From positions 44,392,001-44,456,000 of the forward strand of contig OX597815.1 of NCBI GenBank assembly GCA_951406725.2: 64,000 nucleotides of DNA. Direction: 5' to 3'. Position 1 is the first letter of the stretch. Every line of letters starts with the position of its first letter. This document shows positions 44,146-46,410 of this stretch, in pieces. Both the position numbers and the translations under genes were made by a program. The notes under the pieces were generated by a model. That model did not search any database. It saw only the letters and a list, made by a program, of their open reading frames with translations, and was not told the origin of the DNA. Origin of the DNA: Octopus vulgaris (Eukaryota).

Positions 44146-44230
44146 TTGGTTCATCAAAATGTGACCGCGTGTGTACCGTTGGCGATTTTTTTCCTCCGTC
44201 TTTGCTTCTCTGAATCTTTCCTTTTCCTAT

Positions 44231-44265
44231 GTTTCTGACGAAGAGCTCCGCTCGAAACGTTAAAC
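44231..44265 (+). ncRNA. Minimal type I hammerhead ribozyme (Penelope type)
   Basis: GUUU-CUGACGA-A-GAGC UCC GCUC-GAAA-C-GUU-AAAC: intact core, 4-bp stems I and II, palindromic ACGU in place of stem III. Confidence 0.8.
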
Positions 44266-44372
44266 CCTCCTTCTTTCCTTCCTTCCTGAGCGTCCAATAC
44301 TTTATTTGTTCCTCGTCCTCGCGTTATTGTGTTTTTTCTTTGTGTTTTCATGTTTGGATTAACTATATATAC

Positions 44373-44445
<73 letters not shown>

Positions 44446-44617
44446 TATAAGAAAAAGGGACAGGCAAAACAGGTTGCCTGACCGCATACCGAAAAAATAG
44501 AAATAGCAGTCAAGAATGCTTATTTCTATCAAAGTTGGACTCCGGGCATGACAGACCCTGTAATTCACATATGCAAAACAGAAGGAATAGATAACGAATA
44601 CGAAGTCTGGCGGTTAT

Positions 44618-44728
44618 CTGTGAACATCATGTTTCTGGATTATAAACATATTGAATATATATTCAATATATTTTTGATATATATTTCATATATATTGCAT
44701 ATATATTTCACATCCTTCTTCAACACAG
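44618..44728 (-). ncRNA. Type I hammerhead, unit 1 (core C3U, probably impaired)
   Basis: CUGUG-UUGAAGA-A-GGAU...AUCC-A-GAAA-CAUGAU-GUU-CACAG. Confidence 0.65.
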
Positions 44729-45261
44729 CTTTCCATTGAAAAAGATTTATCATAGATTTATCAAATGCTACGTACCTCAAACCTTCTGACCATGCGACAT
44801 CAAAATATTTGAAGAAAGTGAGCAAAGGCTAAACCTACATAGACGTTTGAATTCATAAATCTTCCCTCCAAAATTTTGCCATGCGCATTACAAAAATAGT
44901 TCCATAAGATGGGGAACAATTAGGTTGTCAAAGGGAGTGAAAAATCCAAATAGTAATATAATGATAAGAGTAAATAATTTCTATAAAGGCTTTTAAAAAA
45001 AAACCCCAATTATTTACTGGTAGAATTCGGTATGTAAATATAGCCGATTACCGGCAGGAACTTCTGTAAAGTTCAGTATATATATTGTATATAAGAAAAA
45101 GGGACAGGCAAAACAGGTTGCCTGACCGCATACCGAAAAAATAGAAATAGCAGTCAAGAATGCTTATTTCTATCAAAGTTGGACTCCGGGCATGACAGAC
45201 CCTGTAATTCACATATGCAAAACAGAAGGAATAGATAACGAATACGAAGTCTGGCGGTTAT

Positions 45262-45372
45262 CTGTGAACATCATGTTTCTGGATTATAAACATATTGAAT
45301 ATATATTCCATATATTTTTGATATATATTTCATATATATTGCATATATATTTCACATCCTTCTTCAGCACAG
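45262..45372 (-). ncRNA. Type I hammerhead, unit 2 (intact core)
   Basis: CUGUG-CUGAAGA-A-GGAU-(~70-nt AU-rich loop)-AUCC-A-GAAA-CAUGAU-GUU-CACAG; stem I 5 bp, stem III ACA/UGU. Confidence 0.75.
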
Positions 45373-46410
45373 CTTTCCATTGAAAAAGATTTATCATAGA
45401 TTTATCAAATGCTACGTACCTCAAACCTTCTGACCATGCGACATCAAAATATTTGAAGAAAGTGAGCAAAGGCTAAACCTACATAGACGTTTGAATTCAT
45501 AAATCTTCCCTCCAAAATTTTGCCATGCGCATTACAAAAATAGTTCCATAAGATGGGGAACAATTAGGTTGTCAAAGGGAGTGAAAAATCCAAATAGTAA
45601 TATAATGATAAGAGTAAATAATTTCTATAAAGGCTTTAAAAAAAAACCCCAATTATTTACTGGTAGAATTCGGTATGTAAATATAGCCGATTACCGGCAG
45701 GAACTTCTGTAAAGTTCAGTATATATATTGTATATAAGAAAAAGGGACAGGCAAAACAGGTTGCCTGACCGCATACCGAAAAAATAGAAATAGCAGTCAA
45801 GAATGCTTATTTCTATCAAAGTAGGACTCCGGGCATGACAGACCCTGTAATTCACATATGCAAAACAGAAGGAATAGATAACGAATACGAAGTCTCGCCA
45901 GACTTCGTATTCGTTATCTATTCCTTCTGTTTTGCATATGTGAATTACAGGGTCTGTCATGCCCGGAGTCCAACTTTGATAGAAATAAGCATTCTTGACT
46001 GCTATTTCTATTTTTTCGGTATGCGGTCAGGCAACCTGTTTTGCCTGTCCCTTTTTCTTATATACAATATATATACTGAACTTTACAGAAGTTCCTGCCG
46101 GTAATCGGCTATATTTACATACCGAATTCTACCAGTAAATAATTGGGGTTTTTTTTTAAGCCTTTATAGAAATTATTTACTCTTATCATTATATAGATAG
46201 ATAGATATATATAGATATATACATGATATATATAATAAGGGTGAAAAGTTGAACATTCATTTGATTAATATCAATTTAAAACCAGTGGCCTAGCATACTG
46301 AAAAATCTAAATTTTCTTGAGAACAATCTTTTCTTAGTGGTCAGACCATATGGGGTCTACCTCTAGCATAATGGATGTCCACTTAGTGGTCATCCCCTCT
46401 TACATGTATG

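Follow-up and report, generated by a model that had tools for sequence, protein, structure and literature searches.

The window, the 64,000-nt stretch of Octopus vulgaris DNA analysed here, contains a palindrome whose arms (296 and 295 nt) are reverse complements of each other around a CGCC spacer (Table 1). It is the centre of a single insertion, the joint within a young non-coding hammerhead element of 644-nt tandem units that lies in a (TA)n target; the element is a putative non-LTR retrozyme, or non-autonomous Penelope-like element. The near-perfect inverted repeat of ~295 bp derives from a multi-copy family and is not due to chance, since a 26-mer of that family has 328 exact matches in the genome and its reversed control has none.

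Element positions are numbered from the base after the predicted ribozyme cut, so that +1 corresponds to 45266 and to 44622 on the minus strand. The head-to-head joint is blunt and falls between 45895 and 45896. At its 3′ end the long arm is fused to (TA)n, the boundary being ambiguous from 44434 to 44445, and both insertion ends abut a TA-type microsatellite. The element sits in the (TA)n end of a neighbouring ~207-bp repeat, for which there were 1581 first-look candidates, with 91-95% identity among the 40 that were scored. A first-pass annotation of the window had delimited the palindrome, its arms and its spacer as given here and had placed the start of the inverted arm at +11 and that of the main array at +15; comparison of the arms agrees with it on these points and shows neither overlap nor inserted bases at the joint. 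It had recorded one of the two differences between the arms, the substitution at 45823, but overlooked the other, a 1-nt indel at 45635.

Folding the 595-nt palindrome gives 294 pairs, a trivial result that is uninformative on transcription. A mir-5897 match in Rfam, far below the gathering score, reflects the hairpin and was rejected. When 80 of the 182 candidate open reading frames of the window were scanned against Pfam in a search for a host gene, only two reverse-transcriptase fragments matched, far from the locus.

Table 1. Features of the insertion and its surroundings, in window positions
Feature	Positions	Strand	Remarks
Reverse-transcriptase fragment of another retroelement	8263-8778	-	
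Reverse-transcriptase fragment of another retroelement	16890-18113	+	
Neighbouring ~207-bp high-copy repeat	44154..44360	+	own minimal hammerhead pattern at 44231-44265, U17
(TA)n target, left side	44364..44449		
Long arm	44434..45895	-	2.27 tandem 644-nt units; from +15, across two predicted ribozyme sites, to ~+190
Predicted hammerhead, unit 1	44618..44728	-	private C3U change at 44723
Predicted type I hammerhead, unit 2	45262..45372	-	pattern and fold; covariation in two related families
Palindrome left arm	45600..45895		portion of the long arm
Substitution private to unit 3	45823..45823		element position +87; other allele in 74 loci
CGCC spacer	45896..45899	+	element +11..+14, only in the short arm
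Short inverted arm	45896..46194	+	element +11 to +311; +311 is one of the fixed 3′ ends of the family
Palindrome right arm	45900..46194		
TA/TAGA microsatellite, right of the insertion	46195..46234		

The family and its head-to-head insertions

Three motifs of the element have 328, 544 and 159 exact matches genome-wide. The census was built from the first 100 matches of each motif, and every locus among these was examined. Not counted are the focal locus itself, L001, which falls outside the census, two neighbours met incidentally in L092 and L208, and the loci at C20 and C29, which were found by their junction pattern. The ends of arms were placed by visual inspection, to within ~5 nt in general and with an uncertainty of up to 20 nt inside the AU-rich stem. 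Where a 3′ end at +84, +92 or +152..+157 was followed by a jump to the TA motif near +171, it was in most cases scored as +190. The census misses partner arms shorter than ~20 nt.

Like retrozymes, the element is dispersed, multi-copy, low in GC (~35%) and apparently without LTR, PBS or PPT, and consists of tandem non-coding units, each with a predicted type I hammerhead; the focal locus has 2.27 units, and arrays elsewhere reach ~12. No Pfam match was found in four open reading frames of the 644-nt unit that were scanned, and the unit is without a reading frame for reverse transcriptase and GIY-YIG endonuclease.

Head-to-head pairs occur at 95 of the 138 other loci, among the matches taken. 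This layout is routine in the family, and the single palindrome is itself ordinary. The 5′-truncated tandem with an adjacent inverted copy, the (TA)n target and the alternative fixed 3′ ends together form a Penelope-like signature. The paired loci bear out the earlier view of the locus as a Penelope-type tandem-plus-inverted insertion, and the accompanying proposal that two cDNAs were joined head to head is likewise supported. The 3′ ends recur at +311/+317 and at ~+190. Exactly one end in +305..+318 is present in 90 of the 95 pairs (two in 2 pairs, none in 3), and the partner of the long-end arm ends elsewhere, mostly at +190. Among 80 joints scored, 16 were blunt, 43 had an overlap of 1-5 nt, 5 a larger overlap and 16 a small insertion; an overlap of 0-5 nt thus accounts for 59. 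The arms share >30 nt of unit sequence in 41 of 52 pairs and are adjacent in the L1 manner in 9 of 52; in 16 of 52 (focal locus included) the second arm has >30 nt that are absent from the first.

The substitution at 45823 could be read as a sign of two templates. The allele is found only in unit 3 of this locus, the 74 loci with the other allele including the other units of the focal locus itself, and it is therefore not evidence of two templates; as proof of them the mismatch was rejected, and it is a later change or an error. A T9 run, by comparison, is present in 5 of 115 copies, of which 3 are in the focal locus and lie in both arms. This shared rare allele points to one source, and both arms probably come from one source RNA. 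Elsewhere in the family the two arms of a pair mostly carry matching subfamily alleles: recurrent sites disagree in 6 of the 52 pairs listed, many of which offer few informative positions. In the T run +261..+272, T8 was seen in 22 of 66 3′-terminal units versus 6 of 49 inner units.

The genome also contains intact elements that encode reverse transcriptase and GIY-YIG endonuclease and have (TA)n targets. As to an autonomous partner, BLASTN of the 644-nt unit against 46 GIY-YIG loci (of 148 matches) gave no match at E<0.01. One young autonomous Penelope-like family (L152-L163) encodes a 781-aa reverse transcriptase with GIY-YIG, and its reading frame is intact in many copies; inverted 5′ pieces are present in 2 of the 12 copies examined. 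It has an upstream 479-aa reading frame without a Pfam match, a pLTR of ~500 nt and a tail of 33-40 nt. A possible variant hammerhead with a U3-A8 core was read by eye near L155:2140-2185.

The predicted hammerhead and related families

In unit 2 the predicted cut falls between 45267 and 45266 on the minus strand. The putative ribozyme has stem I CUGUG/CACAG, the core CUGAAGA, GAAA, a palindromic stem III and U17. Its stem II is ~80 nt long and AU-rich, and there are two extra A's, one after the core CUGAAGA and another before GAAA; the latter departs from the hammerhead consensus as described in PMC4209133. Position 44723, in unit 1, is C in 43 loci and U in one, the focal locus. Rfam returned no hammerhead family match for the element, either at the gathering score or at E<=10.

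The core combined with a short stem II was found 49 times, and the 30 matches that were examined yielded two further families. Both keep the core and the two extra A's, and stems I, II and III have changed with their pairing preserved. The core CUGANGA...GAAA...UH with three covarying stems is that of a PLE-variant type I hammerhead; in that variant the G10.1-C11.1 pair is followed directly by G12, whereas here an extra A stands between C11.1 and G12 in all three families. Since stems I-III covary in two related families, the predicted position of the cut is well supported, and the cleavage site proposed by the first-pass annotation holds as a prediction.

One of the two, the sister family, has a 553-nt tandem unit that is 65% identical to the focal unit and carries the same hammerhead core. 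Its census covers 46 loci, taken from the first 76 of 186 exact motif matches (L230-L259, L260-L309). In 16 of 19 sister pairs there is one end each at ~+192 and at +304..+313, and these ends are homologous to those of the focal family. Among solo copies, 25 of 27 in the sister family end near +192, and focal solo copies end mostly at +311/+317. The third family is short and dispersed (L233, L245, L256, L258), with the same core, a GUA triplet, a palindromic stem III and a covarying stem II.

Arm ends relative to the predicted cut

Stops were counted against the bases at risk, with a correction for how each locus was found. In the pooled data 61 of 233 arms end in +1..+60, a hazard ratio of 2.60 (locus bootstrap 1.82-3.53); compared with the 15 stops in -60..-1 the ratio is 3.3. 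The first set (82 loci, 135 arms) has 32 stops in +1..+60, with hazard ratios of 2.39 versus the rest and 2.61 versus -60..-1. The replicate (56 new loci, 98 arms), for which the test was fixed beforehand, gave 29 versus 5 stops and a hazard ratio of 2.89 versus the rest. When the count is restricted to loci found by the motif at +238..+261, far from the site, the ratio is still 2.5-2.6 versus the rest. The best 60-nt interval of the 644 possible starts at +1 in the pooled data, at -2 in the first set and at +2 in the replicate, and the bin with most stops is +1..+10. Both arms end in +1..+35 in 9 of 95 pairs, against at most 3 in any non-overlapping interval. About 38 of the 61 stops in +1..+60 exceed background. 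A second hot zone, +541..+584, had 15 stops in the first set and was dropped when the replicate showed 6 (hazard ratio 0.95).

The excess is flat over its 60 nt, with just 6 of 233 arm ends in +1..+5 and no pile-up at +1. The +1 site was read through in 175 of 234 passes, and twice by the focal long arm. Near-symmetric joints, counted by exact anchor, number 4 just after the cut, or 3 if the focal locus is left aside, and 2 just before it, with 3 in +61..+75 and 2 in +117..+131; this 3/2/3/2 comparison, similar at the four places, understates the +17..+28 zone because a subfamily differing at +24 is missed. In three separate insertions (L011, L097 and G000:C14:70863169) the joint lies inside the palindromic stem III, ~8-16 nt upstream of the cut. 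In L076, L058 and L185 the near-cut joints carry short repeats of +2..+30, as if copying had slipped back repeatedly.

The same test, set in advance, failed in the sister family: 3 of 65 arms end in +1..+60 versus 9 in the 60 nt upstream, and the stops peak instead at +61..+130 (18 of 65). The stop fractions, 3/61 in the sister and 59/234 in the focal family, differ with a Fisher p of 3e-4. The excess of stops that begins at the predicted cut is thus replicated but family-specific. The first-pass annotation had named clustering of truncation points just downstream of the cut as support for its idea, and an excess is found there, although 172 of the 233 ends lie elsewhere. Its stronger proposal, that the joint records two cDNAs running out at a ribozyme-generated RNA end, is not supported as worded, given 75% read-through, ends spread over 60 nt with so few in +1..+5, similar numbers of near-symmetric joints at other places, and the sister-family result. 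As a footprint of RNA self-cutting, the joint is probably unreliable.

Origin of the joint and comparison with known systems

We favour, with moderate confidence, an origin by Penelope-type priming on two strands followed by end-joining where the copies stopped, for which ribozyme-cut RNA ends would not be required. A Penelope-like reverse transcriptase-endonuclease would mobilise the element in trans, nicking both strands of the (TA)n target and priming DNA synthesis on each, so that the two copies would start at +311 and +190 respectively; their template was probably RNA of a single source. These first steps are suggested by the fixed ends and by in vitro work on Poseidon (PMC11167929). The host would then join the two far cDNA ends wherever each happened to stop. 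The enzyme would usually read through the ribozyme site, which suggests that most of the template was uncut or circular, and the joint at +11/+15 would most likely come from a tendency to stall or be trimmed within the 60-nt stretch, with local hairpins, microhomology and the edge of the ribozyme fold as candidate causes. Predicted pairing in +1..+40 is not higher than elsewhere and so is no demonstration of a stall there. The excess starting exactly at the predicted cut, moreover, is what a cut RNA end predicts, and counts against stalling.

That step in the stop rate, repeated in the 56 new loci, is the main attraction of the alternative that part of the RNA was cut by the hammerhead and that both copies ran to its new 5′ end and were joined after losing 10 and 14 nt. 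We consider this possible but doubtful. Covariation of the ribozyme stems across three families, the ~38 stops above background and the nine pairs with both arms in +1..+35 fit it well, as do arms ending at +1 or +2 in L076, L094, L108, L176 and L215 (each ambiguous by 1-2 nt or locally duplicated) and, at C20, an arm that ends at +1 with a single additional A. It would work for a multimer cut at its 5′ and last sites with two inner sites uncut. Against it stand the failed test in a sister family of the same core, the frequent read-through with no pile-up at +1, and the near-symmetric joints that also lie upstream of the cut and further downstream. U17 and the additional A ahead of GAAA make the predicted core atypical, in vitro cleavage by minimal PLE hammerheads is weak (PMC4209133), and in the Poseidon experiments reported in PMC11167929 reads neither began nor ended at the site. 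On the wider form of this reading, +1..+60 would be an in vivo footprint of self-cleavage, with about one copy in six made from cut RNA, the palindrome two run-offs and the sister family copied from uncut or circular RNA only; we hold that combination improbable. A 5′ end near +1..+60 might instead be a transcription start from an internal promoter, on which the copies ran off, the ribozyme being incidental. Such starts could differ by family (the sister peak lies at +61..+130), would explain both the step and the broad end zone, and agree with motifs described inside pLTRs (PMC3846280). The edge of the zone, within 2 nt of the predicted cut in two sets, speaks against it and makes it unlikely. 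For the +1 excess itself, stalling, trimming or microhomology ranks highest in our view, followed by run-off and then by a transcription start, an order decided by the sister-family result.

Self-priming has been proposed for PLE palindromes (PMC3846280), and here a long cDNA could have folded onto itself and been copied into the short arm, with 4 nt at the centre lost afterwards. The sequence of the long arm does contain the short arm, and the two ends of a pair are at most 30 nt apart more often than in shuffled data (13 vs 6.0 of 53, p 0.004). The short arm nevertheless stops at the main fixed end of the family, +311, the joint is without microhomology, and most pairs are not near-symmetric. 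A second arm that has >30 nt lacking in the first cannot have been copied from it by fold-back, and with 16 such pairs of 52 and 41 sharing >30 nt, neither fold-back nor L1 twin priming fits as a rule; for this locus we regard fold-back as very improbable. That the palindrome is a read fold-back or an assembly error is hardly credible. Errors in the consensus could account for four private differences that fall within 1.76 kb, namely 44723, 45823 and the lengths of two A runs. Several observations speak against an artefact. The right arm ends at the fixed +311, and the flank beyond it is not a mirror image of the left side. The spacer CGCC has the correct sequence of the element and is lacking in the left arm, the arms differ at two places, and 95 other loci of the family have this layout but other joints. 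The joint of another locus, C2:103454500, recurs with identical sequence in a contig of an independent run. Among the contigs listed for seven public runs none bridges the exact junction; a contig can show that a junction is present but not that it is missing, and the insertion could be polymorphic. Runs presumed to be RNA contain 0.24-0.40 of the words of the stretch, and in the one compared no contig lay on the joint.

The preferred account, two-strand priming with end-joining, can be set beside L1 twin or dual priming (PMC2837659), in which two opposite-strand cDNAs are joined at their far ends with little microhomology, as here. L1 twin priming as described there gives non-overlapping fragments, whereas 41 of 52 focal pairs overlap by >30 nt. 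An L1-type mechanism was rejected on this overlap, target-site duplications being unreadable in (TA)n.

Animal non-LTR retrozymes (Cervera and de la Pena 2020, PMC7229834; Li, Clavereau, Pollet, bioRxiv 10.64898/2026.07.22.740005) are described as non-coding, low-GC tandem units, each with a type I hammerhead, that are dispersed as monomers to multimers, as is the focal element, and the same sources propose that they are mobilised by or derived from PLEs. The focal unit is longer (644 nt, known from genomic sequence, versus ~170-400 nt for expressed retrozyme circles), and its hammerhead differs in the 80-nt stem II, U17 and the extra A's. Head-to-head inversions, fixed 3′ ends and breakpoint maps, present for the focal family, do not appear in the consulted passages on retrozymes. 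A search by title and abstract, in which subscription journals are thinly covered, found no published mapping of PLE or retrozyme 5′ ends against the cut site. Pairs of hammerheads on opposite strands, 100-700 bp apart, have been noted (PMC4209133).

PLEs typically have (TA)n targets and an inverted copy truncated at its 5′ end (PMC8557442, PMC3846280). Compared with the endonuclease-bearing PLEs with an inverted 5′-truncated pLTR described there, the focal element is without a reading frame, its main 3′ ends are ~120 nt apart rather than defined by a tail of 30-40 nt, and its unit has no sequence match to the 781-aa PLE family of this genome. That Naiads make inversions while lacking a hammerhead (PMC8557442) was an argument to which little weight was given. 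The inverted layout is already known for Penelope-type elements, and the useful result lies in the family-level numbers. Both the role of PLE hammerheads and the origin of inverted insertions are stated to be open in PMC8557442; this young family offers hundreds of near-identical insertions in which the two are measurable, and two related families with the same core and opposite patterns provide a clean comparison for cleavage. A self-cleavage footprint, if true, would be the first indication at population scale of in vivo cutting by a Penelope-type hammerhead and of its influence on integration.

A further parallel is the Poseidon protein of Anolis, which in vitro nicks and extends both strands with two internal start sites; ribozyme cleavage was unnecessary, and no RNA ends were reported at the site (PMC11167929). 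The post-cut excess of the focal family is not predicted by that work, whose consulted part maps no genomic 5′ ends. Poseidon shares the AT-rich targets, and its two starts predict one arm per site, as in 90 of 95 focal pairs; this rule of one long and one short end, which also holds in 16 of 19 sister pairs, lends in vivo support to the two-strand, two-start-site behaviour seen in vitro.
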